A DNA stretch of 64,000 nucleotides from contig JAGAUW010000012.1 of NCBI GenBank assembly GCA_017620615.1, forward strand, positions 30,221 through 94,220, in the 5' to 3' direction. How positions within the stretch are numbered: the stretch's first letter is position 1; every line of letters starts with the position of its first letter. The notes under the pieces are model-generated. The model searched no databases, had not been told where the DNA came from, and saw only the letters and a program-made list of their open reading frames with translations. The stretch is from Clostridia bacterium. Lineage in GTDB: Bacteria; Bacillota; Clostridia; Monoglobales; Monoglobaceae. Below, in pieces: positions 3,354 to 63,702 of this stretch. The translations under genes and the position numbers were made by a program.

Positions 3354-3427
3354 TGGCTGCCGGACTAGGATTCGAACCCAGACAAACAGAGTCAGAGTCT
3401 GCTGTGCTACCTTTACACAATCCGGCA
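3354..3427 (-). tRNA. tRNA-Gln (anticodon CUG)
   Basis: 74-nt cloverleaf folded by hand: acceptor TGCCGGA/TCCGGCA (U1:A72), G73, CCA end, anticodon loop CTCTGAC, T-loop TTCGAAT. Confidence 0.85.
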
Positions 3428-3459
3428 ATATTAAATTCCTTGCTAAATAAAAAAGTATT

Positions 3460-3544
3460 TGGTGCGAGCAGTGGGACTTGAACCCACACGTCGGTTGACA
3501 CACGCCCCTCAAACGTGCCTGTCTGCCTATTCCAGCATGCTCGC
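3460..3544 (-). tRNA. tRNA-Leu (anticodon GAG), long variable arm
   Basis: 85 nt: acceptor GCGAGCA/TGCTCGC plus A-CCA, D region TGGAATAGGCAGAC, anticodon stem CACGT/GCGTG with loop TTGAGGG, long variable arm, T-loop TTCAAGT. Confidence 0.85.
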
Positions 3545-5792: not shown

Positions 5793-6266
5793 TTAGATTT
5801 TATATGTCAAAGCAGGCGAGCCTGCTTTTGCTGATGCTGCCTCGAGTATTTTGAATTTGCGCATTTTTTCGTGGTTGGTTATGGCTACAACGGTTGTTGT
5901 GTTATAGCCTTTTTCTTTTATCAGTTCAAGATTTGCAGATGCGATGGCATCGCCCTGGGTAACTCGGTCACCTTTTTTCACCAATGGTTTGAAGCCTTTG
6001 CCTTTTAATTCAACAGTGTCTATACCTACATGCACTAAGATTTCAAGACCATCATCTGTAGTTATGCAATAAGCGTGAAGGGTTTCGGTGACATCGGTTA
6101 TTATGCCGCTTGCCGGACTGAAAAATTCGCCATTTACGGGGATTACTGCAAATCCATCTCCTAAAAATTTCTGGGAAAAAACCTGGTCCGGAACTTTGAC
6201 TATGTCGATTATTTTTCCGTTTGCTACGGAAGTGAGGGTTTTCTCTTTCTTAAAAAAACTGAACAC
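5793..6266 (-). CDS. crr: PTS glucose-family EIIA component
   Basis: 157 aa with the HVGIDTVELKGKGF histidine motif typical of EIIA-Glc. Confidence 0.88.
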   Translation of the reverse strand: MFSFFKKEKTLTSVANGKIIDIVKVPDQVFSQKFLGDGFAVIPVNGEFFSPASGIITDVTETLHAYCITTDDGLEILVHVGIDTVELKGKGFKPLVKKGDRVTQGDAIASANLELIKEKGYNTTTVVAITNHEKMRKFKILEAASAKAGSPALTYKI

Positions 6267-6280
6267 AAGAAGGACTCCTT

Positions 6281-7900
6281 TCAGGGAAGATTTATTATTT
6301 TTTCTCGAAGCTTCAATATATACGGGGGTGATACAGACAGCTCATCAATTCCCATATTAATAAATTTTTCGGTAAGTTCCATATCAGCACCAAGCTCGCC
6401 GCAGATGCCCACCCATTTCCCGCATTTGTGGGCGTTTTTCACTACCATTTCTATAAGCCGCAAAATTGCGGTGTGATGCGGGTTAAAAAATGGCTCTAAA
6501 GAGCTGTTTTGGCGGTCTATGGCAAGAGTGTATTGAGAAAGGTCGTTGGTCCCTATACTGAAAAAATCCACCTCAGGAGCAAGGAGGTCAGAGATGATAG
6601 CCGCTGCGGGGGTTTCAATCATTATTCCAAGTTGTATATTTTCGTTGAATGGGATGTTTTGACAGCGGAGCTCGTCTTTTGCCTCTTCAAAAATTTGCTT
6701 TGCTTTTTCGATTTCCTGAGGGGAGATTATCATAGGGAGCATAATAGAAATGTTTCCGTAAGCAGAAGCCCTAAGAAGTGCCCGAAGCTGAGTTTTGAAA
6801 ACGCAGGTATCGGTGAGACATATTCTGATGGCACGAAACCCGAGGGCAGGGTTTTCTTCTTTTGGGAGATTGAAATAATCTATCTGCTTGTCGGCTCCTA
6901 TGTCAAGTGTCCGCACAATCACAGGTTTTCCAAGCATCCTTTCGGCTACCTCTTTATATATGACAAACTGTTCATCCTCGGTGGGGAAATCCTTTCTCTG
7001 AAGATACAAAAATTCACTGCGGAAAAGACCTATACCTCCTGCGTCGTTCTGGATTACTGAGGCAAGGTCGGAGGGGCCGCCGATGTTTGCAAAAACATCT
7101 ATTTTTCGATTGGATTTTGTTATGTTGGGTTTTCCTTTGAGGTTTGAGAGAAGCTCAAGGCGTTCTTCCTCAAGGGCTTTTCGCTGCTTGAAATCGGCAA
7201 TTTTTTCGTCACTTGGATTTATGAAAACAGCACCGCTGTAACCGTCGAGGATTGCATTTTCGCCGTGGTGGGAACAAGGGATTTTGCCTGTACCGATTAT
7301 GGCGGGAATATTCATCGTCCGCGCAAGAATTGCGGTGTGTGATGAGGGAGAGCCGCCAAAGGTTACAAACCCTAAAATCTTTTCTTTATCAAGCTGTACG
7401 GTTTCGCTGGGTGTCAAATCCTCTGCTACAATTATTGAGGGTTCTGTGAGGAGATTTTTGTCTTTATCTTCACCCGAAAGCTTTGTAATCAGGCGGTTTG
7501 ATATGTCGTTTACGTCGCTGGCACGTGCCTTCATATATTCGTCATCCATTTCTGAAAATGACCTTGCAAAAATATCCGAGGTATAGCTGACGGCATATTC
7601 AGCATTTACCTTTTGATTTTGTATCATAGACCGTATTGCCCCGAAATAATCCTCATCATCCAGCATCATAAGATGAATCTGGAATATCTGGGCATTGGCT
7701 TCTCCAACTTCTGTGAGAGACTTTTTGTAGAGCACCTGAAGTTCTTCCTTTGCAGTATTCCGTGCAGCTTCAAATCGCAATATTTCAGCTCTTGTGTCGG
7801 AAATCTTCAGACGTTTTATTGTGGGGACGCTGCTGCTAAGAAAATGCAGTTTTCCCATTGATAATGCGTTATAGACACTTTTGCCGTTAAATTCAAGCAT
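6281..7900 (-). CDS. ptsI: Phosphoenolpyruvate-protein phosphotransferase (PTS Enzyme I)
   Basis: MLEFNGKSVYNALSMGKLHFL...GGSPSSHTAILARTMNIPAI...GTNDLSQYTLA. Start set at ATG 7900 (RBS AAAGGAAC). The ORF-track N-terminal extension to 8278 is AT-rich junk that overlaps the ATPase start. Confidence 0.92.
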   Translation of the reverse strand: MLEFNGKSVYNALSMGKLHFLSSSVPTIKRLKISDTRAEILRFEAARNTAKEELQVLYKKSLTEVGEANAQIFQIHLMMLDDEDYFGAIRSMIQNQKVNAEYAVSYTSDIFARSFSEMDDEYMKARASDVNDISNRLITKLSGEDKDKNLLTEPSIIVAEDLTPSETVQLDKEKILGFVTFGGSPSSHTAILARTMNIPAIIGTGKIPCSHHGENAILDGYSGAVFINPSDEKIADFKQRKALEEERLELLSNLKGKPNITKSNRKIDVFANIGGPSDLASVIQNDAGGIGLFRSEFLYLQRKDFPTEDEQFVIYKEVAERMLGKPVIVRTLDIGADKQIDYFNLPKEENPALGFRAIRICLTDTCVFKTQLRALLRASAYGNISIMLPMIISPQEIEKAKQIFEEAKDELRCQNIPFNENIQLGIMIETPAAAIISDLLAPEVDFFSIGTNDLSQYTLAIDRQNSSLEPFFNPHHTAILRLIEMVVKNAHKCGKWVGICGELGADMELTEKFINMGIDELSVSPPYILKLREKIINLP

Positions 7901-14699: not shown

Positions 14700-14775
14700 T
14701 GGTGGAGATGAGGAGAGTCGAACTCCTGACCCCCTGCTTGCAAGGCAGGTGCTCTCCCAACTGAGCTACACCCCC
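14700..14775 (-). tRNA. tRNA-Ala (anticodon UGC)
   Basis: GGGGGTGTAGCTCAGTTGGGAGAGCACCTGCCTTGCAAGCAGGGGGTCAGGAGTTCGACTCTCCTCATCTCCACCA. G3:U70 identity pair, anticodon loop CTTGCAA. Confidence 0.95.
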
Positions 14776-47606: not shown

Positions 47607-48374
47607 TTAAGCAGCCATTCTATTATCTGCATACTCAAAGTACTCTGGATTGAGTTCTACACCTAAATAATATCTGTCTAATTCTCTTGCACAATACAAT
47701 GTTGAACCTGAGCCAGCACAAGGGTCAAATACAATATCACCAGCATTTGTGTTGTCATTGATTAATTCTTTCAATAACTGATGATTTTTTTCAGTTATAT
47801 TTACAGGGTTTTTCTTACCATGCTGATGCCTAAACACAGTATTCTTGCAAAAAGCATTAAATGTTCCTTTTGGCTTTTTGAAATATACCGCATTTTCTAT
47901 GCCTGACAAGTAAGAGTGTTGTCCGTTCATAGGACTTGGGTTTGTCTTCTCCCAAATTAACTGCCTTACGGTTCCACCATCTTTTTTCTTCTTATCATTG
48001 AAGAAGGATATTATCTCACTTACCTGTGTTTGACCACAAAAGATAACTATTGTGGAAGAAGTAACTCTATACACTTCTTCAAGAAAATCCTTAAGCTCAA
48101 AGGTTAAAATGTCTGCTTTCCCTTTGTCCAAATTTCTTAATCCATTACTTGACCTGCTAACTTCGTTGTAAGGAATATCTGTCAATGTCATAGCAACTGA
48201 CTTTGGTGCCATGAGAGGCATAATTTCCATACAATCACCCATAATCAAACTATTTAACTCAAAACCATTTACCAGACCATTCTTCTTTATGTAATCCGTT
48301 GTTTCAGCAACAGTGTTGTCAAAAATGGTATTTAATTCTTCTAAATTGTAATCGTTAGTTTTCTTCATAGTCAA
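47607..48374 (-). CDS. Orphan beta-class N6-adenine/N4-cytosine DNA methyltransferase
   Basis: Motif IV-like TDIPYN lies N-terminal and motif I FDPCAGSGST lies C-terminal (beta permutation, N6_N4_Mtase-like). No adjacent endonuclease. Confidence 0.8.
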   Translation of the reverse strand: MTMKKTNDYNLEELNTIFDNTVAETTDYIKKNGLVNGFELNSLIMGDCMEIMPLMAPKSVAMTLTDIPYNEVSRSSNGLRNLDKGKADILTFELKDFLEEVYRVTSSTIVIFCGQTQVSEIISFFNDKKKKDGGTVRQLIWEKTNPSPMNGQHSYLSGIENAVYFKKPKGTFNAFCKNTVFRHQHGKKNPVNITEKNHQLLKELINDNTNAGDIVFDPCAGSGSTLYCARELDRYYLGVELNPEYFEYADNRMAA

Positions 48375-51445: not shown

Positions 51446-51506
51446 AATTACATTTTTCTGTAATTTTTTATAAATTATTGAAATTGTAATCGAAATGTGC
51501 TATAAT
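51446..51506 (+). promoter_or_regulatory. Promoter of the type I R-M operon with AATTACA/TGTAATT inverted repeat (candidate controller operator)
   Basis: AATTACA (51446-52) and TGTAATT (51459-65), plus a third TGTAAT in the spacer. TTGAAA (51478-83) - 17 nt - (TGc)TATAAT (51501-06). Confidence 0.55.
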
Positions 51507-51548: not shown

Positions 51549-51755
51549 ATGATAAGTTATAGACCTTTCAGAGTTCTGGTTGCGGAAAAGAATTTGGAAA
51601 CAACTGCTCTTGCACAGGAACTTGGTATTTCTCCAAGTACAATGGCAAAACTCAACGCCAAAAAAGAAGAAAATGAGGCTGTGTCGTTGAAAACCATAGA
51701 CAAATTGTGTAAACATTTCGGGGTTTCGATAGACCAGATAGTAGAAATAAGATAA
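51549..51755 (+). CDS. Small XRE-family HTH protein (controller-like) leading the R-M operon
   Basis: 68 aa: ...LAQELGISPSTMAKLNAKK...LKTIDKLCKHFGVSIDQIVEI. Lies 12 nt upstream of hsdM. Confidence 0.8.
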   Translation: MISYRPFRVLVAEKNLETTALAQELGISPSTMAKLNAKKEENEAVSLKTIDKLCKHFGVSIDQIVEIR

Positions 51756-51767
51756 GGAGATTGTGTC

Positions 51768-53273
51768 ATGGCAGTTAATAATGCAAATATAGGGTTTGAA
51801 AAGCAAATCTGGGATGCAGCGTGTGTTCTCTGGGGACATATTCCTGCTGCTGAATACAGAAAGGTTATTGTCGGGTTGATATTCTTAAAATATATCTCCA
51901 CAGCCTTTGAAAAGAGATATAATGAGCTCGTTGCGGAAGGCGACGGATTTGAAGATGATATTGACGCATATTTGGAAGATAACATCTTCTTCGTTCCGCC
52001 TGAAGCTCGTTGGAGTACCATCGCATCTGCGGCACATACACCTGAAATAGGTGCGGTAATTGATAACGCAATGCGTGCAATCGAAGAACAGAACCCTAAA
52101 CTTAAAAATGTTCTTCCGAAGAACTACGGCAACCCAGACCTTGATAAGCGTGTATTAGGTGATGTAGTTGACCTTTTCACTAATAATATGAATATGGAAG
52201 ATACGGAAGAAAGCAAAGATTTGCTTGGTCGTACCTATGAGTTCTGTATCGCAAATTTCGCGGAGTACGAGGGCGTTAAAGGCGGCGAATTCTACACACC
52301 ATCAAGCATTGTTAAGACCATCGTATCTATTTTGAAGCCATATGATAACTGCCGAGTATATGACCCTTGCTGTGGCTCTGGCGGTATGTTCGTACAGAGC
52401 GTCAAGTTCTTACAGGCTCACTCCGGAAATCGAAATAAGATTTCTGTTTACGGACAGGAAAGTAATGCAGACACGTGGAAGATGGCTAAAATGAATATGG
52501 CGATACGCGGAATTGATGCGGAATTCGGTCCGTATCATGCCGATACCTTCTTCAATGACCTGCATCCGACACTTAAAGCCGACTTCATTATGGCAAATCC
52601 GCCGTTCAACCTTTCAAACTGGGGTGCAGATAAATTAAAGGACGATGTTCGTTGGAAGTATGGTATGCCCCCTGCTGGTAATGCCAACTTCGCGTGGATA
52701 CAGCACATGATACATCACCTTGCTCCTAATGGTAAGATTGGACTTGTCCTTGCTAACGGTGCTCTTTCAACACAGAGTTCGGGCGAAGGTGAAATCAGAA
52801 GGAATATCATCGAGAGTGACCTTGTAGAAGGTATTGTTGCACTACCCACACAATTGTTTTACAGCGTAACAATTCCCGTAACATTGTGGTTTATAAGCAA
52901 GAATAAAAAGCAGAAAGGCAAGACCTTATTTATCGATGCTCGTAAAATGGGTTATATGGTAGATAGAAAACATCGTGATTTTACCGATGAAGATATACAG
53001 AAACTTGCCGACACATTTGCAGCATTTCAGGACGGAACTCTTGAAGAAGTTAAGGGCTTCTGCTCTGTTGCCACCATTGAAGATATACAGAAACAGGACT
53101 ACATATTAACGCCTGGTAGATACGTGGGTATTGAAGAACAGGAAGAAGACGATGAGCCGTTTGAAGAAAAGATGACAAGATTGACTTCCGAACTTTTTGA
53201 GATGTTCGATAAATCTCACAACCTTGAAAATGAAATTCGCAGAAAGTTGGGGGCGATTGGGTATGAAGACTGA
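51768..53273 (+). CDS. hsdM: Type I restriction-modification system methyltransferase subunit
   Basis: HsdM N-terminal domain (IWDAACVLWGHIPAAEYRKVIVGLIFLKYIS), motif I DPCCGSGGM, motif IV NPPF. Confidence 0.95.
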   Translation: MAVNNANIGFEKQIWDAACVLWGHIPAAEYRKVIVGLIFLKYISTAFEKRYNELVAEGDGFEDDIDAYLEDNIFFVPPEARWSTIASAAHTPEIGAVIDNAMRAIEEQNPKLKNVLPKNYGNPDLDKRVLGDVVDLFTNNMNMEDTEESKDLLGRTYEFCIANFAEYEGVKGGEFYTPSSIVKTIVSILKPYDNCRVYDPCCGSGGMFVQSVKFLQAHSGNRNKISVYGQESNADTWKMAKMNMAIRGIDAEFGPYHADTFFNDLHPTLKADFIMANPPFNLSNWGADKLKDDVRWKYGMPPAGNANFAWIQHMIHHLAPNGKIGLVLANGALSTQSSGEGEIRRNIIESDLVEGIVALPTQLFYSVTIPVTLWFISKNKKQKGKTLFIDARKMGYMVDRKHRDFTDEDIQKLADTFAAFQDGTLEEVKGFCSVATIEDIQKQDYILTPGRYVGIEEQEEDDEPFEEKMTRLTSELFEMFDKSHNLENEIRRKLGAIGYED

Positions 53274-53481
53274 AAAAGAACTTAAAATCAAATTTAGTGC
53301 ACCACTTAATGATGGTGATACGGAAACTCAAACTTATGGATGCAGAGCAAATAATCCAGATATATGCGGCAATGCTTACATGGATGGAGTTTGTGCTTTT
53401 GTAAGTTCTGATTGTATTTGCAAAAAACCATCTTCTGCATGGAAAAGACAGTATATGAAATTGAAAGGAGATGCCAAATGA
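53263..53481 (+). CDS. Small Cys-rich hypothetical protein (72 aa) nested between hsdM and hsdS
   Basis: MKTEKELKIKFSAPLNDGDTETQTYGCRANNPDICGNAYMDGVCAFVSSDCICKKPSSAWKRQYMKLKGDAK. ATG overlaps the hsdM end by 11 nt, and the stop overlaps the hsdS ATG (ATGA). Confidence 0.45.
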   Translation: MKTEKELKIKFSAPLNDGDTETQTYGCRANNPDICGNAYMDGVCAFVSSDCICKKPSSAWKRQYMKLKGDAK

Positions 53482-54620
53482 CACAGAATTATAGATTTGG
53501 TGAAATTTGCGATGTCTTAAATGGAAGAGCATATAAGCAAAATGAACTCCTTTCAAGCGGGAAGTACCCTGTGTTGCGTGTTGGTAATTTCTTTTCGAGC
53601 GATAGATGGTATTATTCGGATATGGAACTACCCGAGAATAAGTACTGTGATAATGAAGATTTGTTGTTTGCGTGGTCTGCTTCTTTTGGCCCTAAAATAT
53701 GGGATGGCGGAAAGGTAATATATCATTATCATATATGGAAATTGGTTCCCGATACTTCAAAAGCGGATAAATATTATCTGTACTACTGGTTAAAGCATTC
53801 TGTAAATCGTCTTACAGCAGGAACACACGGAAGTGTTATGGCGCACATGACCAAAGGAGATATGGAAAATCAACAGATTGAACTCCCGTCGTTAGATGTC
53901 CAGAAGAAAGTAAGTTCGATTTTGAAAACATTAGATGATAAAATTAAATTAAATAATGAGATAAACTCTAATTTATTTGAGCAAGTTAAGACGTTATATT
54001 ATAATATGATTAATTCTGACTGTAACCATACGTCAACAAAATTGTCTGAATTGTGTGATTTTCAAGAAGGATATGTAAATCCTTCACAATCTCACTCTGA
54101 GTATTTTGAAGGTGAAATTAAATGGCTACGTGCAGTAGATATTAATGAAAGTTTTATAATAAATACATCTCGCACATTATCAAAACAAGGCTTTGAGAGT
54201 GCAGGAAAAAGTGCTCTCCTTTTCAAACCTGACACAATTGCCATAAGTAAATCTGGAACAGTTGGAAGATTGGGTATTATTGCAGATTACATGTGCGGAA
54301 ATCGTGCGGTTATAAATATCACACCCAAAGATGCTTCGATGATTACGTTTATTTATTCATATCTTCAATCGAAGCAAGCGGAATTCCCAGATTTAGCGGT
54401 GGGTAGTGTTCAAAAAAATCTATACGTATCCGTATTGGCAGATTTAGATGTTCAGTTGCCTGACGAAAAGTATTTGAAAATCTTTTCCGAAACCACCATA
54501 CCACTCTACAATACAATCTCAAACAACTGTAAAGAGTGCTTGGAATTAGCGTTAATACGTGACACTTTACTACCGAAATTGATGTCGGGAGAGATAGACT
54601 TGTCCAATATTTCTATTTAA
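53478..54620 (+). CDS. hsdS: Type I R-M specificity subunit
   Basis: 380 aa with two TRD-like halves separated by conserved helices (...LPSLDVQKKVSSILKTLDDKIKLN... and ...LIRDTLLPKLMSGEIDL). Confidence 0.9.
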   Translation: MTQNYRFGEICDVLNGRAYKQNELLSSGKYPVLRVGNFFSSDRWYYSDMELPENKYCDNEDLLFAWSASFGPKIWDGGKVIYHYHIWKLVPDTSKADKYYLYYWLKHSVNRLTAGTHGSVMAHMTKGDMENQQIELPSLDVQKKVSSILKTLDDKIKLNNEINSNLFEQVKTLYYNMINSDCNHTSTKLSELCDFQEGYVNPSQSHSEYFEGEIKWLRAVDINESFIINTSRTLSKQGFESAGKSALLFKPDTIAISKSGTVGRLGIIADYMCGNRAVINITPKDASMITFIYSYLQSKQAEFPDLAVGSVQKNLYVSVLADLDVQLPDEKYLKIFSETTIPLYNTISNNCKECLELALIRDTLLPKLMSGEIDLSNISI

Positions 54621-54651: not shown

Positions 54652-54870
54652 ATGATGTTTATATCAGATACATATCAGTGTGAGTGTGATACAAAATTTG
54701 AATGGAAAACATATTTTCTACAATCAGGAGAGTGCATCTTTGGAAAATGGGATAACATTGAGAAAAATATTGTTAATAAAACGTTAAGTAATAATGTGTG
54801 CCATATCACAATTGTTTGCCCTAACTGTCATCGACAATATTGTATAACCAAAGATCTAGATACAAAATAA
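54652..54870 (+). CDS. Small zinc-ribbon-like protein (72 aa)
   Basis: MMFISDTYQCECDTKFEW...ITIVCPNCHRQYCI (CxC...CxxC). RBS AGGAG 6 nt upstream. Confidence 0.55.
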   Translation: MMFISDTYQCECDTKFEWKTYFLQSGECIFGKWDNIEKNIVNKTLSNNVCHITIVCPNCHRQYCITKDLDTK

Positions 54871-54883
54871 TTAGGAGTATATT

Positions 54884-55567
54884 ATGGAGTATATCAAAAA
54901 ACAAGTACATACCTGTTTCCACTGTGGTAATACCGGATTACTTAAATTTATTGGCAAAACCGAATGGAAAGATGAAGATATTGCAAAAGACGGTGCAGGT
55001 AATATTATTAATTATACGCTGATAGAACACGAAGATTGGTATGTTTTTGAGTGCCCTGTATGCAATAAACCTGTTATTATAAGCGAATATGTCCTTGATG
55101 TTGCAGAAACTCCTGCAGAATACAAAACAGAGTATCCTACCATTGCGGTATCGCCTATTGGCGTTCCAAAAGAAATATACTCTGCGTTTGAAGCTGCTGT
55201 AAAAACAAAAGGCATAGACCACTCGATTTGTTTACTGTCATTACGAAGAGTTCTTGAGATGATTTGTAAGGAAAAAGGTGCTGTTGGTAAAGATTTAGAA
55301 AAGAAAATTGATGATTTGATTGAAAAAAAGGTTTTTCCACCAATGATTGAAGATGCCTGCTGGATTATCAGACAAATGGGTAACGACGCAGCACATGCTG
55401 ATAAAATAACTCTATATTCGTATGATGTAGAACAAGTTATTGGATATGTAGCCACAATAATAGATTACCTATACTCGCTTCCATATCGTGTGGAAAAAAT
55501 GAAAACAAAAATTCAGGAGCGGAAAAGAACTTCCAAGAAAACAGACGAAAATAAGGAGAATAAGTAA
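54884..55567 (+). CDS. Zinc-ribbon plus DUF4145-like domain protein (227 aa)
   Basis: N-terminus CFHCGNTG...ECPVCNKP. C-terminus ...AFEAAVKTKGIDHSICLLSLRRVLEMICKEKGA...IEDACWIIRQMGNDAAHAD matches the DUF4145 helix pattern (...R..lE.......I..lR..GN.AAH). Confidence 0.65.
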   Translation: MEYIKKQVHTCFHCGNTGLLKFIGKTEWKDEDIAKDGAGNIINYTLIEHEDWYVFECPVCNKPVIISEYVLDVAETPAEYKTEYPTIAVSPIGVPKEIYSAFEAAVKTKGIDHSICLLSLRRVLEMICKEKGAVGKDLEKKIDDLIEKKVFPPMIEDACWIIRQMGNDAAHADKITLYSYDVEQVIGYVATIIDYLYSLPYRVEKMKTKIQERKRTSKKTDENKENK

Positions 55568-56229
55568 TGGTAGAAGTAATACAATGGTGTAATGACAATG
55601 AGGGGTTTGTATCTATGCTTCTTTCTGCTATTACGGTGTTAATTTCTCTATATGTTATGTATAAATCAAATGATAATTCTAAAAAAATCTCAGAGAAACA
55701 AGCCGAGTTAGAAAAGAATATTGCACTTAGACAGGAAGATATGCAAAGGCGACAGATAAAAGTTGATACATATCCTTATAGGGCGGAATGTTGGGAAAAA
55801 TTATATATGTTGCGTGAAGAGACCGAAATACTCAAAACTGCATTTCAAGTAGAAACTTTTTCTAATTTAAACATACACGAAATAAGCGCAAAACTTCAAC
55901 CATTTTATACAACATATAAAGAAAGTGTAATTGCACTTAATCGAGCACGAAATATATTTCCAGTTAGTTCTTGGGGGAGAATAGATTATATCAAACTCTG
56001 TGTCGAAAAAAACAATAATATTATTTGTAAATTTAAGATTTACAATGATGTTCTTACAGAGGAAGACAAAAAAGGCAAGGAAGAAGAAAAAAAGCACGAC
56101 TTGTTGCAGTTCTCAAAAGGCCTAAATATTATATCGAGAGAATTGTCGGAGGTTTTGCGTTTAGTTGATAAAGATTTATGTATCGCAGAACTTCATTCTT
56201 GGAAAGGCATATATGACAAAGGAGAGTAA
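55567..56229 (+). CDS. Single-pass membrane protein with coiled-coil region (220 aa)
   Basis: N-terminal hydrophobic helix VSMLLSAITVLISLYVMY followed by K/E/Q-rich helices. ATG overlaps the upstream TAA by 1 nt. hsdR starts 2 nt after its stop. Confidence 0.6.
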   Translation: MVEVIQWCNDNEGFVSMLLSAITVLISLYVMYKSNDNSKKISEKQAELEKNIALRQEDMQRRQIKVDTYPYRAECWEKLYMLREETEILKTAFQVETFSNLNIHEISAKLQPFYTTYKESVIALNRARNIFPVSSWGRIDYIKLCVEKNNNIICKFKIYNDVLTEEDKKGKEEEKKHDLLQFSKGLNIISRELSEVLRLVDKDLCIAELHSWKGIYDKGE

Positions 56230-56231
56230 TT

Positions 56232-59200
56232 ATGGGAGTATTTTTCACAGAAGCAGATTATGAAAATTCCGTAATCGAACTGTTCAAGGGGTTAGGCTAT
56301 ACCTATATCTATGCTCCTGAACTTGAACGGGATTTGAAAAGCCCTTTATATGAAGAAGAACTGATGAGTGCGTTATACAGGTTAAATCCAGATTTGCCTG
56401 ATAGCGCTATTTCGGATGCTCTTTATAAATTAAAGAACTATGAGAACGGCGAACTCGTGCAGAAGAACGCCGTATTTATGGACTACCTGCAGAATGGTAT
56501 CCCCGTACGGTATTTAGATAAAGGCGAAGAACGCTCTGCTCTCTGTTACCTTGTTGATTATAAGAATATTGACAATAACTCCTTTGTTGTGGCAAACCAA
56601 TGGACTTTCATCGAAAATAGTAATAAGCGCCCAGATGTGCTGCTGTTCCTGAATGGTATGCCTGTTGTTCTGGTAGAATTGAAATCACCATCACGTGAAG
56701 AAACGGATGCGTCGGAAGCATATTTGCAGATAAGGAACTATATGCAGGAAATTCCTTCAATGTTCATTTATAATGCAATCTGTGTTATGAGCGACCAATT
56801 GACATCAAAAGCAGGAACTATAACATCCGGAGAAGACCGCTTTATGGAGTGGAAAACCAAAGACGGTAATTATGAGAATACGCAGTATGCACAGTTTGAT
56901 ACTTTTTTTGAAGGTATGTTCCAAAAGGACAGACTGCTTGATATCATAAAGAACTTCATATGCTTCTCTAATGAAGGCATAAAAAGTTTCAAGATTTTAG
57001 CAGGTTATCATCAGTATTATGCCGTAAATAAAGCGGTAGTTTCTACGAAAAAAGGAACTATGACAGATGGTAAAGGTGGTGTATTCTGGCATACACAAGG
57101 AAGTGGTAAATCGCTTTCAATGGTATTTTACGCCCATCTGCTGCAAGAAAAATTGGACAGCCCTACTATCGTGGTACTTACAGACCGTAATGACCTTGAT
57201 GACCAATTATACGGACAGTTTGCAAAATGTAAGGATTTCTTGCGTCAGGAACCGATACAGGCTGAAAGCCGAGAGCATCTGAAATCGTTACTTGATGGCA
57301 GACGGGCTAACGGTATCATTTTCACAACGATGCAGAAATTTGAAGAAGCCGACAATGCTCTTTCCGAACGTCGTAATATTATCGTTATGGCTGATGAAGC
57401 GCATCGTGGTCAGTACGGGTTGTCTGAAAAAATCAAGATGACTAAAAATGAAGATGGTGAAGAAATCGCAAAAAGAGTTGTTGGTACTGCTCGTATTATC
57501 AGGAACAGTTTGCCGAATGCTACATACATTGGCTTTACTGGTACTCCTATATCTGCAAAGGACAGAAATACCAGAGAAATCTTTGGTGATTACATAGATA
57601 TTTATGATATGACACAGGCTGTTGAAGACGGTGCTACTCGCCCTGTTTACTACGAAAGCCGAGTTATTAAGTTAAACCTTGACGAGAATACGCTGAAGCT
57701 TATTGATGCGGAATATGAGATTATGGCTCATAATGCCGATGAGCAGGTTATAGAACAGAGTAAGCGTGAGTTAGGTCAGATGGAAGCCGTATTGGGTAAT
57801 GACCAGACTATCAACTCCCTTGTAAACGATATTTTAGACCACTATGAGAACTATCGTGAAAACCTGCTTACAGGTAAAGCGATGATAGTTGCATATTCAC
57901 GCCCGATAGCGATGAAAATATATAAGAGAATACTTGAAGTAAGACCTGCTTGGAAGGACAAGGTTGGCGTTGTTATGACAAGCAGCAACAAAGACCCTGA
58001 AGAATGGCACTCTATCGTAGGTAACAAACATCATAAAGATGAGTTGGCATTGAAGTTCAAGGACAATGACAGTCCGCTGAAAATTGCTATCGTTGTAGAT
58101 ATGTGGCTTACGGGCTTTGATGTTCCTTCCCTTGCTACTATGTATGTTTATAAGCCTATGAGTGGTTATAATCTGATGCAGGCGATTGCTCGTGTAAATC
58201 GTGTGTTTAGAGATAAAGAAGGCGGTCTTGTAGTTGACTATGTTGGTATCGCATCTGCTCTTAAACAAGCGATGAATGATTATACGGTGCGTGACCGTAA
58301 GAATTACGGAGACACCGATGTTGCGAAGGTTGCATATCCGAAATTCCTTGAAAAGTTATCTATATGTAAAGACCTGTTTCATGGGTATGATTATGATAAG
58401 TTCAAAACGGGAACAGACCTTGAACGTGCAAAGACAATCAGCGGTGCCGTAAACTTTATCATCGCTCGTGAGAAAGAAAAAGAAAGAGAAGATTTTGTGA
58501 AAGAAGCACTTATGCTGCATCAGGCGTTGTCCTTGTGTTCTTCTCTGGTAGATAAAGATATGAGATTTGAAGCCGCTTTCTTTGAAGCCGTAAGGGTTAT
58601 GGTAATAAGGCTTACCAATCAGGGAACAGGCAAGAAAATTTCATTACCTGAAATGAACGCCCGTATCAATGAACTGTTAAAGCAGAGCATCAAGAGCGAC
58701 GGCGTAATCAACTTATTCTCCGATGTTCAGCAGGAGTTCTCACTATTTGACCCCAAGTTCCTTGAAGAAATCAGCAAGATGAAAGAAAAGAACTTGGCGG
58801 TTGAACTGTTGAAGAAACTTATTGCCGAACAGATACATGTATATAAGAGAACTAATGTTGTTAAATCCGAAAAGTTTAGTGACATCATTCACGAAGTAAT
58901 GAATAGGTACTTAAACGGTATGCTTACCAACGAGCAGGTTATTGAAGAACTTATGAACCTTGCAAAGCAGATTTCCAAAGCAAAAGAAGAAGGCGAAGAA
59001 TTAGGTTTATCTCCTGATGAGTTAGCATTTTATGATGCTTTGACAAAGCCACAGGCCGTTAAGGACTTCTATGAGAATGATGAACTTATTGCAATCACAA
59101 AAGAACTGACAGATGCTTTGAGAAAGAACAAAACGGTAGATTGGCAAAGAAAAGACAGCGCACGTGCCAAGATGCGTATGCTTATCAAGAAACTTCTTAA

Positions 59201-59291
59201 AAAGCATAAGTACCCACCAGAAGGTATGGATGATGCGGTACAGACTGTTATGGTTCAGTGCGAACTATGGGTAGATAATGAAGAGATGTAA
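56232..59291 (+). CDS. hsdR: Type I restriction enzyme R subunit
   Basis: 1019 aa. N-terminal nuclease region (PDVLLFLNGMPVVLVELK), helicase motifs GSGKS, MADEAHRGQ, GFTGTP, and QAIARVNR. Confidence 0.95.
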   Translation: MGVFFTEADYENSVIELFKGLGYTYIYAPELERDLKSPLYEEELMSALYRLNPDLPDSAISDALYKLKNYENGELVQKNAVFMDYLQNGIPVRYLDKGEERSALCYLVDYKNIDNNSFVVANQWTFIENSNKRPDVLLFLNGMPVVLVELKSPSREETDASEAYLQIRNYMQEIPSMFIYNAICVMSDQLTSKAGTITSGEDRFMEWKTKDGNYENTQYAQFDTFFEGMFQKDRLLDIIKNFICFSNEGIKSFKILAGYHQYYAVNKAVVSTKKGTMTDGKGGVFWHTQGSGKSLSMVFYAHLLQEKLDSPTIVVLTDRNDLDDQLYGQFAKCKDFLRQEPIQAESREHLKSLLDGRRANGIIFTTMQKFEEADNALSERRNIIVMADEAHRGQYGLSEKIKMTKNEDGEEIAKRVVGTARIIRNSLPNATYIGFTGTPISAKDRNTREIFGDYIDIYDMTQAVEDGATRPVYYESRVIKLNLDENTLKLIDAEYEIMAHNADEQVIEQSKRELGQMEAVLGNDQTINSLVNDILDHYENYRENLLTGKAMIVAYSRPIAMKIYKRILEVRPAWKDKVGVVMTSSNKDPEEWHSIVGNKHHKDELALKFKDNDSPLKIAIVVDMWLTGFDVPSLATMYVYKPMSGYNLMQAIARVNRVFRDKEGGLVVDYVGIASALKQAMNDYTVRDRKNYGDTDVAKVAYPKFLEKLSICKDLFHGYDYDKFKTGTDLERAKTISGAVNFIIAREKEKEREDFVKEALMLHQALSLCSSLVDKDMRFEAAFFEAVRVMVIRLTNQGTGKKISLPEMNARINELLKQSIKSDGVINLFSDVQQEFSLFDPKFLEEISKMKEKNLAVELLKKLIAEQIHVYKRTNVVKSEKFSDIIHEVMNRYLNGMLTNEQVIEELMNLAKQISKAKEEGEELGLSPDELAFYDALTKPQAVKDFYENDELIAITKELTDALRKNKTVDWQRKDSARAKMRMLIKKLLKKHKYPPEGMDDAVQTVMVQCELWVDNEEM

Positions 59292-59966: not shown

Positions 59967-60545
59967 TTATTGCTGGATTTTAGGCGGATTTGCTTTTTCG
60001 TATTCTTCAAAGAGTTTATACAAGGTCTGCCTGCTGATGCCGAGTTCCTTTGCGAGTTGGGTTTTGGAATAAATCCGATGCTGCCACATTTGATACCATT
60101 CTCCGAAATTTTCGATGCTAATGGCTTTTCTTCCTTTATATTTGCCTTCTTTCTTTGCTATGGCAATGCCCTCGCGTTGGCGTTCGAGCATATTTTCTCT
60201 TTCAAAGGTGTATATAGCACCTATCATCGTAAGCATCAGCCTGCCCTGTGGGGTTGACGTATTGATGTTTTCCTTGACGGATATCAGGGTTACTTTCTTC
60301 TGTTGAAGAAATTCGACGATATCAAGTAGATTTTTTGTCGAACGAGCAATTCTTGAAAAGTCTAAAATGTAAAGCACATCGTTCTCCCTGCAAAAGTCGA
60401 GGCACTTTTGCAACTCTGGTCTATTCATATCTTTTCCCGATGCCTTTTCTATAAAATACTTCTCTATGCCGTATGATTTTAATGCTTCTTCTTGTCTTTT
60501 GGTAGATTGGTCAGAACAAGATACACGTATGTATGCACAAATCAA
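59967..60545 (-). CDS. Small serine recombinase (resolvase/invertase family)
   Basis: MICAYIRVSCSDQS... (catalytic Ser motif), ...DVLYILDFSRIARS..., and C-terminal HTH ...GISRQTLYKLFEEY. TTG start behind AAGGAG. Confidence 0.88.
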   Translation of the reverse strand: MICAYIRVSCSDQSTKRQEEALKSYGIEKYFIEKASGKDMNRPELQKCLDFCRENDVLYILDFSRIARSTKNLLDIVEFLQQKKVTLISVKENINTSTPQGRLMLTMIGAIYTFERENMLERQREGIAIAKKEGKYKGRKAISIENFGEWYQMWQHRIYSKTQLAKELGISRQTLYKLFEEYEKANPPKIQQ

Positions 60546-60718
60546 TGATAAACACTCCTTTTTCTTATGTCGTGACCGTATACTAACTCTTCAGGAGTGG
60601 TTTCGTCAAGTTTAAATTATAATGTGGTTTACAGTTCGTCTAAAACGCCCAGAAATCAATTTTATTTAGATATTTTAATCGTGTAGGTTTAAGGCATGGT
60701 CTATTTATACATTAAAAT

Positions 60719-60746
60719 AAGCACTCTCCGGTTCCGGAGAGTGCTT
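60719..60746 (-). terminator. Terminator after the XRE gene
   Basis: aagcactctccgg/ccggagagtgctt. The minus-strand tail is ttatttta. Confidence 0.7.
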
Positions 60747-61053
60747 ACTTAATTATATCATTAACAATAGAAGTTATACTGTCAAGTTGCTTGTCGCTCA
60801 TCTTTTTCAGCGAACTTATCAACACATTTAGCTTTTCGGGGTTTTGTGCATCTGTATCAAAGAAGTCACTTGGCGATATCTCCAAATATTCACAGATGAA
60901 GAAAAATGCTGCCATTGACGGTAGTGCCTTACCACATTCTACATTATTAATATATCCTGCATTCTGACCTATTGCTAAACTCATCTCTCTTGCTGACACA
61001 CCTTTTTTAGTTCTTAACTGTGCCAGGCGTAACGGAAATTCATCCTCGTACAT
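60745..61053 (-). CDS. XRE-family HTH transcriptional regulator
   Basis: ...LRLAQLRTKKGVSAREMSLAIGQNAGYINNVECGKALPSMAAFFFICEYLEISPSDFF.... Start at ATG 61053 behind GAGGTG. Confidence 0.85.
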   Translation of the reverse strand: MYEDEFPLRLAQLRTKKGVSAREMSLAIGQNAGYINNVECGKALPSMAAFFFICEYLEISPSDFFDTDAQNPEKLNVLISSLKKMSDKQLDSITSIVNDIIK

Positions 61054-61192
61054 TGATATCACCTCACTATACATAATATTATATCCCACAAAAATTAAAA
61101 TACTGCGGAACTATTCCTTAAAATGTATTGTTATATCGTAATGAAAGTGATATAATGTATATAAATGTTTGAAATAAAGTGATAAATGTGAG

Positions 61193-61735
61193 ATGAGTAA
61201 GCCGATGAGTAAAGAAAATACCGCCTGTTTCTTCGGGCATAGAAAAATTGATACATCTGATAAGTTAAAGACTATATTATATGAAGAAATTGAAAAACTG
61301 ATAACCGTTGACGGTATTAACACCTTCCTTTTCGGAAGTAAAAGCCAGTTTGATGACCTTTGTTATAAAATCGTTTCCGAATTAAAAGGGAAATATCCTG
61401 ACATCAGACGTATCTATGTCAGGGCGGAAAGCGAGTATATTGACGGCGAAGGCAGCCGAGCATATAGAGAAGGATTGATGGAACTATATGAGCATACCTA
61501 CTACCCCGAAAGTGTTTCGGGTGCTGGTAAGGCAGTTTATGTCAAGCGCAATCAGCACATGATAGATGAAAGTGCGGTATGTGTAGTCTATTACGATGAG
61601 AGTTATGCTCCTTCAAGGAGAAAGCACAGCAGGCGTGATTTGTTCGATTATCAGCCGACAAGCGGCACAGGTGTAGCCTATAAGTATGCCGAAAGGAAAA
61701 AAAGAAGAATTATAAACATTTACTCTATGTTATAA
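61193..61735 (+). CDS. SLOG-family protein (DUF1273 / YpsA-like)
   Basis: ...TACFFGHRKI...INTFLFGSKSQFDDLC...VCVVYYDE... pattern is typical of DUF1273. Divergent from the XRE gene. Confidence 0.6.
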   Translation: MSKPMSKENTACFFGHRKIDTSDKLKTILYEEIEKLITVDGINTFLFGSKSQFDDLCYKIVSELKGKYPDIRRIYVRAESEYIDGEGSRAYREGLMELYEHTYYPESVSGAGKAVYVKRNQHMIDESAVCVVYYDESYAPSRRKHSRRDLFDYQPTSGTGVAYKYAERKKRRIINIYSML

Positions 61736-61848
61736 ATTTTCATTTGTAACAAAAATGTAATAATGCCAGAATGTGTTGAGATTTCAATAAAACAATTTTT
61801 GAAATCCTGCCGTTAGAGGCATCTTCAAAAAAAGTGGTGCTCTACGCC

Positions 61849-61877
61849 TTGAAAACTCAAAGAAAGTGTGATACAAT
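61849..61877 (+). promoter_or_regulatory. Strong promoter upstream of xis leader
   Basis: TTGAAA - 17 nt - (TGa)TACAAT, extended -10. Confidence 0.6.
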
Positions 61878-62033
61878 ATTTAACGGTAGAAGAAATGTGG
61901 TCACAATGTGACCTCTGGCACAACTTTATGGTGTAAACTGTATAAGGTTGGTGGCGATGGTGGTCTGTTAGCATAGTGCTAACAGTTTATATGAGATATA
62001 CTATAAGTGAATACTGCCTTTATAGGCTTTTTC

Positions 62034-62066
62034 GGTGTGCCGTATTTTACGGCACACCATTTTTTG
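62034..62066 (+). terminator. Intrinsic terminator ~85 nt upstream of xis
   Basis: ggtgtgccg-tatttta-cggcacacc followed by attttttgtttt. Confidence 0.8.
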
Positions 62067-62149
62067 TTTTGCAGGTAAACAAAAGAAGATAGTTTTGCGG
62101 CATCTATTCAAAAACCGTAAATCTATAGAAAGGACAGGAGACGGTTCGC

Positions 62150-62344
62150 ATGAAGGAAGTTCCTATTTGGGAAAAAAGCAATCTGACCTTGGAAGAAGCT
62201 GCAGCATATTCAGGCATTGGCATCAGCAAAATTCGTCAGATGTCAGATAGAGAAGATTGTGAATTTGTCCTCTGGGTAGGTACTAAGAGATTAATCAAAA
62301 GAAGAAAATTTGATGAATATATCGATATGGCATACTCAGTATGA
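62150..62344 (+). CDS. xis: Excisionase (Tn916 Xis-like)
   Basis: MKEVPIWEKSNLTLEEAAAYSGIGISKIRQM...LIKRRKFDEYI parallels the Tn916 Xis pattern (IPIWE..TLT.EEA..Y..IG..K.R). Confidence 0.85.
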   Translation: MKEVPIWEKSNLTLEEAAAYSGIGISKIRQMSDREDCEFVLWVGTKRLIKRRKFDEYIDMAYSV

Positions 62345-62386
62345 CAGATTTATAAATAATGTATTGTAATCCGGAGAAAAGGCGCC

Positions 62387-62415
62387 TTGCATATTTGGTG
62401 TCAACGCGATATAAT
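62387..62415 (+). promoter_or_regulatory. Candidate int promoter
   Basis: TTGCAT - 17 nt - TATAAT. Enclosed by the inverted repeat AAAAGGCGCCT (62377-87) / AGGTGCCTTTT (62430-40). Confidence 0.5.
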
Positions 62416-62475
62416 GGGACATCGTTGTTAGGTGCCTTTTTTCTGCAAAATTTTAGTTAGAAAGGACGAAAAATT

Positions 62476-63702
62476 ATGGCAGGTAAGAGAAGATTAGATA
62501 AAAATAGAGTAACATTGAGAAAAGGTGAATCTTATCGTAGTGATGGTAGATACTCTTTTCGTTGGTGTACTCGTGATGGGAAAAGGCATTATATTTATGC
62601 TAAAACACTTGATGAGTTAAGACGCAAGGAAATGGAACTGACTGTTGACCAGTTTGACGGCATTCGCACAGACAAGCAGCACACAACAGTTAATGATGTG
62701 TTTGAACTCTGGTGTGAATTAAAGAGGGGGTTAAAAGATAATACCTTTCAAAATTATAAATATATGTACAATAATTTTGTTAGGAACAGTTTTGGTAAGT
62801 TAAGAGTTTCAAATGTTAAGAAGTCAGATGTTAAAAAGTTCTATAATACTTTGGCAGATGAGAAGATATTGCAAATTTCAACCATAGATACAGTACATAA
62901 CATACTGCATCAGGTTTTTGCACTTGCAGTTGATGACAATTACATTCGCCAGAACCCGACGGATGAAATGCTAAAAGAGTTAAAGAAATCTCATGGTTTT
63001 CAAGTAACAAAGAGAAAGGCGCTAACAGTTCCAGAACAGGAACTATTCATACAGTTTTTGAAAACAAATGCTAAGTACAAGCATTGGTATCCTGTGTTTG
63101 CCACGATGCTTGGAACAGGAATGCGTGTAGGAGAGATAACAGGACTCCGTTGGTGTGATTTGGACTTTAAGGAAAATCTGATACATGTTAATCACACATT
63201 GGTATATTATAACAAGGGTGACAACAACGGTTGTTCCTTTGCAATTAACTCAACAAAAACTCCAGCAAGTTTTCGTACTATACCAATGTTGGCATCTGTT
63301 AAAGAAGCCTTTCTTATGGAGAAGGCTTATCAGGAAGAAGTCGGGTTATCATGTAGTGCAAAGGTTGATGGTTACACCAACTTCATATTTATCAATCGTT
63401 TCGGGAACACTCAACATCAAGGAACATTGAACAAGGCTATCAGAAGAATTATCAGAGATTGCAATGATGCGGTATTATTAAAGGCGACGGATGACAATCC
63501 CGTACTTTTGCCTCCATTCAGTTGCCACTCACTAAGACATACATTCACTACTCGCTTGTGCGAAGAAGGTGTAAATGTCAAGGTTATTCAGGACGTATTG
63601 GGGCATGCTGATTTTAACACAACAATGGACATCTACACAGACGTCACAAATGACCTCAAGCAGAAGGAGTTTAGTGCTTTGGATGTCAAGATGGTGCAGT
63701 AA
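62476..63702 (+). CDS. int: Tyrosine-type site-specific integrase (Tn916 Int-like)
   Basis: 408 aa. N-terminal arm-binding region (RKGESYRSDGRYSFRW), catalytic ...TGMRVGEI...HSLRHTF...LGHADFNTTMDIYTDV. Confidence 0.92.
   Translation: MAGKRRLDKNRVTLRKGESYRSDGRYSFRWCTRDGKRHYIYAKTLDELRRKEMELTVDQFDGIRTDKQHTTVNDVFELWCELKRGLKDNTFQNYKYMYNNFVRNSFGKLRVSNVKKSDVKKFYNTLADEKILQISTIDTVHNILHQVFALAVDDNYIRQNPTDEMLKELKKSHGFQVTKRKALTVPEQELFIQFLKTNAKYKHWYPVFATMLGTGMRVGEITGLRWCDLDFKENLIHVNHTLVYYNKGDNNGCSFAINSTKTPASFRTIPMLASVKEAFLMEKAYQEEVGLSCSAKVDGYTNFIFINRFGNTQHQGTLNKAIRRIIRDCNDAVLLKATDDNPVLLPPFSCHSLRHTFTTRLCEEGVNVKVIQDVLGHADFNTTMDIYTDVTNDLKQKEFSALDVKMVQ

Follow-up and report, generated by a model that had tools for sequence, protein, structure and literature searches.

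What joins three small genes in the middle of a type I restriction-modification (R-M) operon: do they form one immune system, or are they separate accessories that share an insertion site? The question is raised by a stretch of 64,000 nucleotides from a Clostridia bacterium (assembly GCA_017620615.1, contig JAGAUW010000012.1, positions 30,221 to 94,220 of the forward strand), hereafter called the window, in which three open reading frames (ORF1, ORF2 and ORF3) lie between the specificity gene hsdS and the restriction gene hsdR. A preliminary description of this DNA had taken them for a candidate defence trio matching no named system, in which a zinc-ribbon sensor could be coupled to a membrane effector. 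In our study, the defence-related character of the cassette is upheld, and the cassette is probably a composite of independent back-up defence genes in a recombination-permissive slot of an R-M operon borne on an integrative and conjugative element (ICE). The three genes are as follows.

54652-54870, plus strand: ORF1, 72 aa, stand-alone zinc-ribbon-like protein (C10xC12...C56xxC59), optional companion of ORF2
54884-55567, plus strand: ORF2, 227 aa, Cys4 zinc ribbon (residues ~1-75), linker and predicted C-terminal DUF4145 HEPN RNase domain (~95-200) with R163/H171
55567-56229, plus strand: ORF3, 220 aa, predicted membrane-anchored four-helix bundle of an undescribed family, with a transmembrane (TM) helix at 13-31

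Separability and family membership of the three genes

The relatives of ORF2 were sampled from one genome per GTDB species and from metagenome contigs, and the window proteins were located in the fetched loci by tblastn; 13 ORF2 lineages and 7 ORF3 lineages were evaluable outside the element itself. The intact trio was found in six loci (L001-L006), which are near-identical copies of the whole neighbourhood on gut-metagenome contigs (hsdM and hsdR 98-99% identical) and are therefore counted as one lineage. An ORF3 homologue accompanies none of the 13 other ORF2 lineages, ORF2 accompanies none of the 7 other ORF3 lineages, and an ORF1 homologue lies beside ORF2 in two of the 13 only (L012 and L013, 47-49% identity). 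Since ORF2 and ORF3 do not occur together outside the near-identical copies of this element, they appear to be independent modules which are neighbours here by chance. A conserved trio is hence not sustained, and the coupling of a sensor to a membrane effector proposed in the preliminary description is left without comparative support. The neighbourhoods of the homologues bear out an association with R-M loci (nine of 13 ORF2 and six of seven ORF3 lineages) and not one between ORF2 and ORF3.

Nine of the ORF2 lineages have hsdS immediately upstream and/or hsdR downstream (L011-L017, L034/35 and L036-38), and their hosts are Lachnospiraceae, Acutalibacteraceae, other Clostridia, Bacilli, Bacteroidales and Thermoguttaceae. 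The remaining four are placed outside any R-M locus, in mobile or defence surroundings of other kinds, and two of these four copies have a frameshift or a truncation. As for ORF3, in five of the seven lineages its homologue occupies the hsdS-hsdR interval of the same HsdR lineage, and neither ORF1 nor ORF2 is present (L007/8, L009, L023-25, L026-30 and L031-33); the identity to ORF3 ranges from 81% down to 30%. One further lineage (L041) is found just downstream of a type III-like cluster of SNF2, DUF4391, methylase and Res genes, and in the last one (L010) the gene is split and belongs to an Abi_2/STAND island that has no R-M genes.

When the three proteins were compared with PADLOC, Pfam, NCBIfam and PHROGs, a real match was obtained for ORF2 only, which is by homology a divergent member of the known RAZR/PD-T7-4 family. 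Its cysteines are arranged as C11xxC14...C57xxC60, and Pfam DUF4145 (PF13643) is matched with E = 1.2e-15 and 57.8 bits against a cut-off of 23.1, so that the ribbon and the DUF4145 signature read earlier are both confirmed and DUF4145 retains its place as the key domain. The PADLOC model PD-T7-4 (PDLC04109) is matched over the full length of ORF2 (E = 1.1e-11, residues 5-220 on profile positions 10-205 of 211), and PHROG 1305 is matched as well (E = 5e-22). The statement that the trio is not any named system therefore fails for ORF2; it stands for ORF1 and ORF3, which have no real match.

PD-T7-4 was renamed RAZR in 2026 and is a ring-activated zinc-finger RNase of E. coli and Klebsiella (PMC9519451; PMC13017515). 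Its zinc-finger domain (ZFD) binds ring-forming phage proteins, either a putative recombinase (Gp77) or the portal, with 24 copies surrounding the ring, and the activated protein cuts single-stranded RNA non-specifically, leading to abortive infection (PMC13017515). R146 and H154 are needed for defence, which is abolished by alanine substitution, and the protein is a single-gene system with its own RNase effector that needs no R-M system (PMC13017515). DUF4145 itself had been classed as a predicted HEPN RNase in 2013, when its fusions to zinc ribbons and to type I R subunits and its occurrence in R-M operons were also listed (PMC3710099). The remark that DUF4145 has no assigned mechanism is thus out of date in view of the 2013 prediction and the 2026 characterisation of RAZR.

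The residues C11, C14, C57, C60, R163, N167 and H171 are invariant in 26 ORF2 homologues. In a phmmer search of PDB, the deposited RAZR structure 9y9c (24 chains of a DUF4145 protein) was matched weakly (E = 3e-3 to 5e-3), and R163 and H171 of ORF2 fall on its chain positions 146 and 154. The AlphaFold2 (AF2) model of ORF2, with a predicted local distance difference test (pLDDT) score of 82, comprises a beta-rich N-domain (strands 21-35, 41-56 and 63-71) and a helical C-domain, and with Foldseek the latter matches the HEPN toxins 1o3u, 7ae6, 5yep and 7bxo (probability 0.89-1.0, target TM-score 0.40-0.64), of which 7ae6 was also used for comparison by the RAZR authors (PMC13017515). The same Foldseek search against PDB did not return 9y9c among the top 50, and the two-domain model gives poor global TM-scores; for these reasons a shared oligomeric structure with 9y9c is not claimed. 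Within the ORF2 family, mean pairwise identity reaches 0.74 in the HEPN domain, against 0.43 in the ZFD hairpin and 0.38 in the linker. The hairpin is the variable surface, and RAZR shows the same pattern, its HEPN domain being better conserved than its ZFD; such variation would be expected of a phage-facing sensor. Relatives of ORF2 were not seen in IMG/VR when viral_contigs was scanned with alignment A1, and tblastn against PLSDB plasmids yielded only four matches, all distant.

In ORF1 the CxC...CxxC arrangement noted earlier is present, with C10, C12, C56 and C59 invariant (alignment A4). Its homologues are scarce: three clusters were found among 5.8 billion proteins, in addition to the copies in L012 and L013. 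Residues 37-67 align to 38-68 of ORF2 over 31 columns (hhalign E = 1.7e-4, probability 25-49%) with matching cysteine register, and ORF1 thus resembles the second half of the ORF2 ZFD. Paralogy is suggestive on this evidence; as a clear paralogue of the ORF2 ribbon, ORF1 was rejected, the match being local and confined to 31 columns. The paralogy proposed in the preliminary description is therefore kept for the cysteine register and the short match, and at a probability of no more than 49% it is only weakly supported. Because the ZFDs of RAZR dimerise and contact the trigger, it may be speculated, by analogy, that a free ZFD-like protein such as ORF1 could modulate the assembly or specificity of ORF2.

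ORF3 has the single N-terminal hydrophobic helix (13-31) and the K/E-rich region described before. The flank of the helix is acidic on the N side (net charge -3) and K-rich on the C side, which predicts an N-out/C-in topology with about 12 external residues bearing a conserved WCNxNxGF motif. The other conserved motifs are RQxxLQxRQIKVDTYPY(K/R) and, near the C-terminus, DLxISDL (alignments A2 and A3); the former stretch looks like an interaction surface and not like an active site. In the AF2 model (pLDDT 91), a long helix (12-95) leads from the membrane into a cytoplasmic four-helix bundle. Foldseek with this model against PDB and BFVD returned only generic four-helix bundles, none at E <= 1e-3, the sequence search of PDB was empty, and no fitting model was present in Pfam, NCBIfam or PADLOC. 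A holin was considered and rejected: TIGR01592 is matched with 13.7 bits, the cut-off being 47.3, the match to PHROG 263 (E = 1.9e-4) covers residues 10-63 only and is found in four of 25 family members, and beyond its one TM helix the protein is a soluble helical bundle. Likewise, the PADLOC candidate PDC-M31B was discarded (E = 0.032; two of 25 members match, best E 0.014).

The ORF3 family comprises 11 homologues by a word-indexed search and 42 clusters at 50% identity by exhaustive phmmer. With alignment A3 no relatives were found in metagenome_contigs or viral_contigs, so that the family is unseen in IMG/VR by this method, and tblastn of ORF3 against PLSDB plasmids gave no match. In loci whose HsdM and HsdR keep 70-87% identity, ORF3 keeps only 30-34%, and its ratio of nonsynonymous to synonymous substitution rates (dN/dS) is about ten times that of hsdR. 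The rank order of its divergence roughly tracks that of HsdR, which suggests a long co-descent with the operon. Taken by its contexts, ORF3 appears to be linked to R-M systems, to be located at the membrane and not to be needed by the enzyme.

When compared with the closest homologous element, ORF1 has a dN/dS of 0.24, ORF2 of 0.02 and ORF3 of 0.26, and hsdM and hsdR have values of 0.02-0.04; with more distant copies the value for ORF3 is 0.13-0.22. As all three values are below 0.3, ORF1, ORF2 and ORF3 are, on these ratios, real protein-coding genes under purifying selection, and ORF1 and ORF3 are by the same measure fast-evolving.

The hsdS-hsdR slot, the operon and its mobile setting

Judged by its gene content, the hsdS-hsdR junction of this HsdR lineage is a cargo hotspot. 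Its occupants vary among operons with an HsdR 61-95% identical to that of the window, and the list includes RAZR-like, HEPN p136-like, PIN_12, Fic/PDC-S04, FRG, DUF3800 and ORF3-family genes and a second TM family. The occupants other than the relatives of ORF2 and ORF3 are given below.

L011 4993-5490 and L012 10659-end: HEPN pEK499_p136-like gene, 165 aa (Pfam E = 1.2e-4, below the gathering score; RNxxxH motif)
L013 10682-11704: PIN_12 gene, 340 aa, immediately upstream of hsdR
L014 1404-2294: Fic gene matching the PADLOC candidate PDC-S04 (E = 5.8e-104), with an 82-aa ORF
L036 8995-9864: FRG-domain gene, in a locus which also has an hsdS shufflon
L042 4466-5962: DUF3800 gene, on Lactococcus plasmid pUC073A
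L043 5097-5720: unannotated 207-aa ORF with hydrophobic segments, on pLLUC310B
L009 3569-4264, L023 7753-8424 and L031 6156-6791: second undescribed family, ~210-230 aa, with two TM helices

The second TM family shares the slot with relatives of ORF3, to which it is weakly related (hmmsearch E = 1e-6 to 3e-3); it has the motifs GFRITYxP and KIALFEKRY and no match in Pfam or PADLOC. A smaller, second slot is present at the hsdM-hsdS junction: the window has a 72-aa ORF (orf72) there, L007 an ORF of 117 aa, and L036 one of 165 aa together with PIN_12. The observation that the cassette sits where prrC sits in its own operon holds, and the insertion of defence genes into the hsdS-hsdR interval is already well established (PrrC, TgvAB, RloF and DarTG2). 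TgvAB of the V. cholerae island VPI-2 and RloF of Campylobacter jejuni lie there, TgvAB working independently of HsdR nuclease activity (PMC11411939), and DarTG2 lies there in a type I island of enteropathogenic E. coli (EPEC) that starts with a small regulator gene, that of the repressor RptR (PMC12255303).

The eight ORFs of the window operon are ordered XRE-hsdM-orf72-hsdS-ORF1-ORF2-ORF3-hsdR on the plus strand. Besides the cassette, the following features belong to it.

51478-51506, plus strand: best sigma-70-like promoter match (TTGAAA-17-TATAAT, TG-extended, 11/12 matches), a consensus match only, upstream of the XRE gene
51549-51755, plus strand: XRE/HTH_26 small regulator, controller-like, first gene of the operon (Pfam HTH_26 E = 1.4e-13)
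51768-53273, plus strand: hsdM, type I methyltransferase (Pfam N6_Mtase E = 6e-111, HsdM_N; PADLOC MTase_I E = 2.3e-201)
53263-53481, plus strand: orf72, Cys-rich, 72 aa, in the second, smaller insertion slot
53478-54620, plus strand: hsdS, specificity subunit with two target recognition domains (Pfam Methylase_S E = 3e-45)
56232-59291, plus strand: hsdR, restriction subunit of the T1RH-like_C lineage (Pfam HSDR_N, SWI2_SNF2, T1R_D3-like and T1RH-like_C; PADLOC REase_I E = 2.7e-302)

The ORF coordinates confirm the gene order, strand and gaps of the preliminary description: 31 nt between hsdS and ORF1, 13 nt between ORF1 and ORF2, -1 nt between ORF2 and ORF3, and 2 nt between ORF3 and hsdR. 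Each of ORF1, ORF2, ORF3 and hsdR is preceded by a GGAG Shine-Dalgarno sequence 6-10 nt upstream, and no terminator-like site was found on the plus strand of the hsdS-hsdR interval. With such tight and overlapping junctions, the co-transcription of the cassette with the R-M genes claimed before is very probable. The match at 51478-51506 is likely to be the operon promoter, and no comparable plus-strand site with an extended -10 was found inside the cassette. The cassette is also more A+T-rich than its flanks, as had been noticed by eye: its G+C content is 33.0% with 0.25-0.28 at third codon positions (GC3), whereas hsdM has 42.4% and hsdR 40.0% with GC3 of 0.40-0.41. Neither Rfam matches at the gathering threshold within the cassette nor long repeats flanking the cassette or the element were found.

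The product of the XRE gene has weak matches to the PADLOC HTH_VI and control-protein models. No classical type I family was assigned to HsdR, whose solved relatives by sequence are only EcoR124-type HsdR chains (~3e-31, partial). The gene orf72 shares 11 nt with the end of hsdM and 4 nt with the start of hsdS, and has no family match in Pfam, NCBIfam, PADLOC or PHROGs. A gene is called at its position in L001-L006 too, and its nucleotide sequence is identical in L001, though the adjoining hsdM is only 95% identical (nucleotide) and hsdS only 59% (protein).

In L001-L006, Pfam assigns Resolvase, YpsA, Tn916-Xis and tyrosine-integrase domains to the genes downstream, and at 59967-63702 of the window there are ORFs of the same sizes and order as the resolvase, HTH, YpsA-like, Tn916-type Xis and tyrosine integrase genes of L001. 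On account of this homology and of the taxa of the related loci, we infer that the operon is carried by a Tn916-like integrative element, at its integrase end, and that the host is a low-G+C member of the Bacillota. The hsdS gene is only 59% identical to the L001 copy (5957-7054) whereas hsdM, ORF2 and hsdR are 98-99.6% identical; the divergence of hsdS amid near-identical flanking genes indicates that the specificity gene was exchanged between elements which otherwise hardly differ. Integrase-driven hsdS shufflons were observed in the related operons L009, L036-38 and L042. Upstream of the operon, at 47607-48374 on the minus strand, the window has an orphan N6_N4-type DNA methyltransferase gene, whose Pfam assignment is taken from the near-identical L001. 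Rfam at the gathering threshold detected only three tRNA genes in the window.

3354-3544 and 14700-14775, minus strand: tRNA-Gln(CTG), tRNA-Leu(GAG) and tRNA-Ala(TGC)

Because of these tRNA genes the left part of the window may be chromosomal, or else the element carries tRNAs.

Some further features of the related loci may be recorded here. In L011 and L012 the ORF2 homologue is overlapped at its 3' end by the 165-aa ORF, which would make a second HEPN gene directly after the RAZR-like one. In L026, and also in L027-L030, a 166-aa ORF without family match follows hsdR directly in the same orientation (L026 11823-12323; P0140 lineage). In L041 (1-8506), the distant ORF3-family member P0162 is downstream of the cluster of SNF2 helicase, DUF4391, N6_N4 methylase and Res/RE_endonuc genes; it follows two unannotated ORFs of 188 and 177 aa and precedes a PBECR4 nuclease-like gene. 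In the P0105 lineage (L034 and L035; 6690-9773), the hsdR gene after the ORF2 homologue is split into ORFs of 327 aa and 642-661 aa, and hsdS is missing from L034; in this lineage the RAZR-like gene seems to persist while the R-M operon decays.

A probable composite of independent genes and its rivals

The explanation which we hold to be probable is that the cassette genes are independently mobile accessories that landed in the hsdS-hsdR slot and would be expressed from the XRE-controlled promoter of the operon. The type I enzyme would restrict unmodified DNA, and ORF2 would serve as a second line when phage DNA escapes restriction, either because it is modified or because an anti-restriction protein is present. 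By homology, the variable zinc ribbon of ORF2 would bind a phage-encoded multimeric, ring-forming protein; a higher-order assembly of ORF2 would follow and switch on the HEPN active site at R163/H171, and the activated protein would cut cellular and phage RNA non-specifically, so that translation stops and the infection is aborted. ORF1, a free-standing copy-like zinc ribbon, probably modulates the assembly or specificity of ORF2. ORF3 would be a separate R-M-linked membrane accessory acting as sensor, effector or tether, and its family appears to have long accompanied this HsdR lineage, as well as a second R-M type, in the absence of ORF2.

Several points weigh against this explanation. The similarity of ORF2 to E. 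coli RAZR is remote (E ~3e-3) and covers the HEPN half only, and the zinc ribbon of ORF2 has a hairpin longer by about 15 residues; in view of both, its trigger and mode of assembly may differ from those of RAZR. No match demonstrates a function for ORF1 or ORF3, and the spacing of the genes is the only ground for co-transcription. As every locus was reached through a homologue of ORF2 or ORF3, the sample gives no frequency of empty slots. The embedding of nine of 13 ORF2 lineages in R-M operons, unlike E. coli PD-T7-4, might reflect a functional link with the R-M enzyme, and the near-exclusive R-M context of ORF3 in six of seven lineages suggests more than hitch-hiking.

For ORF2, the main rival is a guard of the PrrC kind: ORF2, possibly with ORF1, would be held latent on HsdMSR and freed by a phage anti-restriction factor (Ocr, ArdA or Stp-like), and it would sense the integrity of the R-M enzyme and not a phage structural protein. 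ORF2 occupies the same slot as prrC, nine of the 13 evaluable lineages are embedded in operons of one HsdR lineage, HEPN-type RNase chemistry is common to PrrC and, by prediction, ORF2 (PMC3710099), and the fusion of DUF4145 HEPN domains to type I R subunits elsewhere implies physical coupling. We consider this guard quite unlikely all the same: Pfam, NCBIfam and PADLOC reveal neither an ATPase or other PrrC regulatory domain in ORF2 nor similarity to PrrC, RAZR is triggered directly by phage portal or recombinase rings without any R-M system, four ORF2 lineages are outside R-M loci, and the variable surface is the ZFD hairpin, as for a phage-facing sensor. Moreover, the divergences of ORF2 and HsdR are discordant (identities of 49% against 81% in L016, 79% against 69% in L011), which argues for exchange of ORF2 between operons rather than co-evolution of partners. 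A still smaller chance is given to an obligate three-gene system, in which ORF1 and ORF2 sense infection and signal to a membrane-disrupting ORF3, all three being required. The tight spacing with the 1-nt overlap of ORF2 and ORF3, and the integrity of the trio in L001-L006, would agree with it, but these six loci are one lineage with hsdM and hsdR 98-99% identical, the 13 other ORF2 lineages lack ORF3 and the seven other ORF3 lineages lack ORF2. RAZR, too, functions as a single gene with its own RNase; and the TM helix of ORF3 with its weak N-terminal holin match in PHROGs (E = 1.9e-4), which might indicate membrane disruption, is offset by the occurrence of that match in four of 25 members and by a TIGR01592 score far under the cut-off (13.7 against 47.3 bits).

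For ORF3, the main rival is that it serves the type I enzyme, as an accessory subunit or a regulator, and is not a defence effector; in the tether version, ORF3 would place or sequester HsdR at the membrane, near the site of DNA entry, or would delay restriction after entry of the ICE. This role is unlikely, yet several points are in its favour: the family is almost confined to R-M loci (five of seven lineages in the slot and one downstream of a type III-like res gene), the gap to hsdR is 2 nt in three lineages, the divergence rank roughly follows that of HsdR, suggesting long vertical co-descent, and the predicted cytoplasmic four-helix bundle on a TM anchor has a non-enzymatic look. On the other hand, many operons of the same HsdR lineage are devoid of ORF3 (L011-L017, L034-L038 and L042), and ORF3 would therefore be dispensable for restriction; it evolves far faster than HsdR (30-34% against 71-83% identity, with dN/dS about tenfold), and one member lies in the Abi_2/STAND island without R-M genes. 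The same fast evolution, together with the small size, the single TM helix, the location on an ICE and the short conserved motif WCNxNxGF predicted to be extracytoplasmic, might also be expected of a superinfection-exclusion (Sie) or entry-exclusion (Eex) protein that blocks DNA injection or conjugative entry ahead of restriction. Such a protein is very improbable here, as the predicted topology is nearly all cytoplasmic with about 12 residues outside, several members are found in chromosomal R-M operons without sign of an ICE, and no similarity to known Sie or Eex proteins was found in PHROGs, Pfam or NCBIfam. Finally, an integrated three-layer immune operon may be proposed, with ORF3-family proteins as dedicated membrane partners of restriction enzymes, an R-M accessory subunit of a class not recognised before, and ORF1 as a ZFD-only modulator which caps or retargets the assembly of the RAZR-like RNase. 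ORF3 would then couple membrane events to HsdR activity or be guarded by HsdR, and WCNxNxGF would sense phage DNA injection or conjugative entry. This proposal is rather doubtful, and the composite of independent genes is preferred to it.

Relation to known systems

The locus does not overturn current views, and its value is that of a lead and not of a surprise. A divergent RAZR clade of Gram-positive gut bacteria inside type I R-M operons raises the question of whether RAZR-type sensors cooperate with restriction enzymes or watch over them. The hsdS-hsdR hotspot of one HsdR lineage can easily be mined, which is useful for discovery through "guilt by embedding", and the ORF3 family (about 42 clusters at 50% identity) is a candidate for a new defence protein or R-M accessory.

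With RAZR, ORF2 shares a size of about 220 aa, the N-terminal Cys4 zinc ribbon, a conserved linker and the C-terminal DUF4145 HEPN domain, and its R and H, 8 residues apart, are aligned to R146/H154. It differs in having 43 residues between the CxxC pairs versus about 29 in RAZR-Ec, and in being sometimes preceded by a separate zinc-ribbon gene (ORF1). Further, E. coli PD-T7-4 is reported as "often overlapping an integrase gene", whereas the ORF2 family is found mostly in type I R-M operons and not next to an integrase. In case of PrrC (the type IC EcoprrI operon, hsdM-hsdS-prrC-hsdR), the likeness lies in a gene for an RNase of the HEPN superfamily, predicted for ORF2, between hsdS and hsdR, and by analogy in an abortive-infection back-up to the type I enzyme. 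ORF2 lacks the ABC-ATPase-like N-domain, shows no detectable homology to PrrC and carries a zinc ribbon instead; no ATPase or PrrC family match was found for ORF1, ORF2 or ORF3 in Pfam, NCBIfam and PADLOC. The masking by the R-M complex and the release by an anti-restriction peptide are features of PrrC.

The EPEC island with DarTG2 has a similar architecture of small regulator, hsdM, hsdS, embedded defence genes and hsdR (PMC12255303), with an unrelated cargo, an ADP-ribosyltransferase toxin-antitoxin pair; the XRE/HTH_26 regulator of the window takes the same place in the operon as RptR. TgvAB and RloF are alike in being accessory defence genes inserted between hsdS and hsdR (PMC11411939), whereas TgvAB, a GmrSD-like type IV restriction system, is a DNA-targeting, modification-dependent nuclease and not an RNase or membrane protein. 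The fusions of DUF4145 to HsdR and its operons with R-M, McrBC and TerD genes (PMC3710099; Makarova 2012, 2013) involve the same Pfam family and type I association, and a zinc-ribbon fusion is listed among them; ORF2, in contrast, is a separate polypeptide in a defined slot, and the HsdR of the window carries T1RH-like_C and not DUF4145. Hence, the embedding pattern is established and the ORF2 family is already mechanistically characterised. To these systems our study adds a RAZR clade which is embedded in R-M operons, has an enlarged ZFD and is accompanied in some loci by a ZFD-only protein; a family of membrane proteins without annotation, found almost exclusively in R-M loci; and a cargo hotspot that is well defined.

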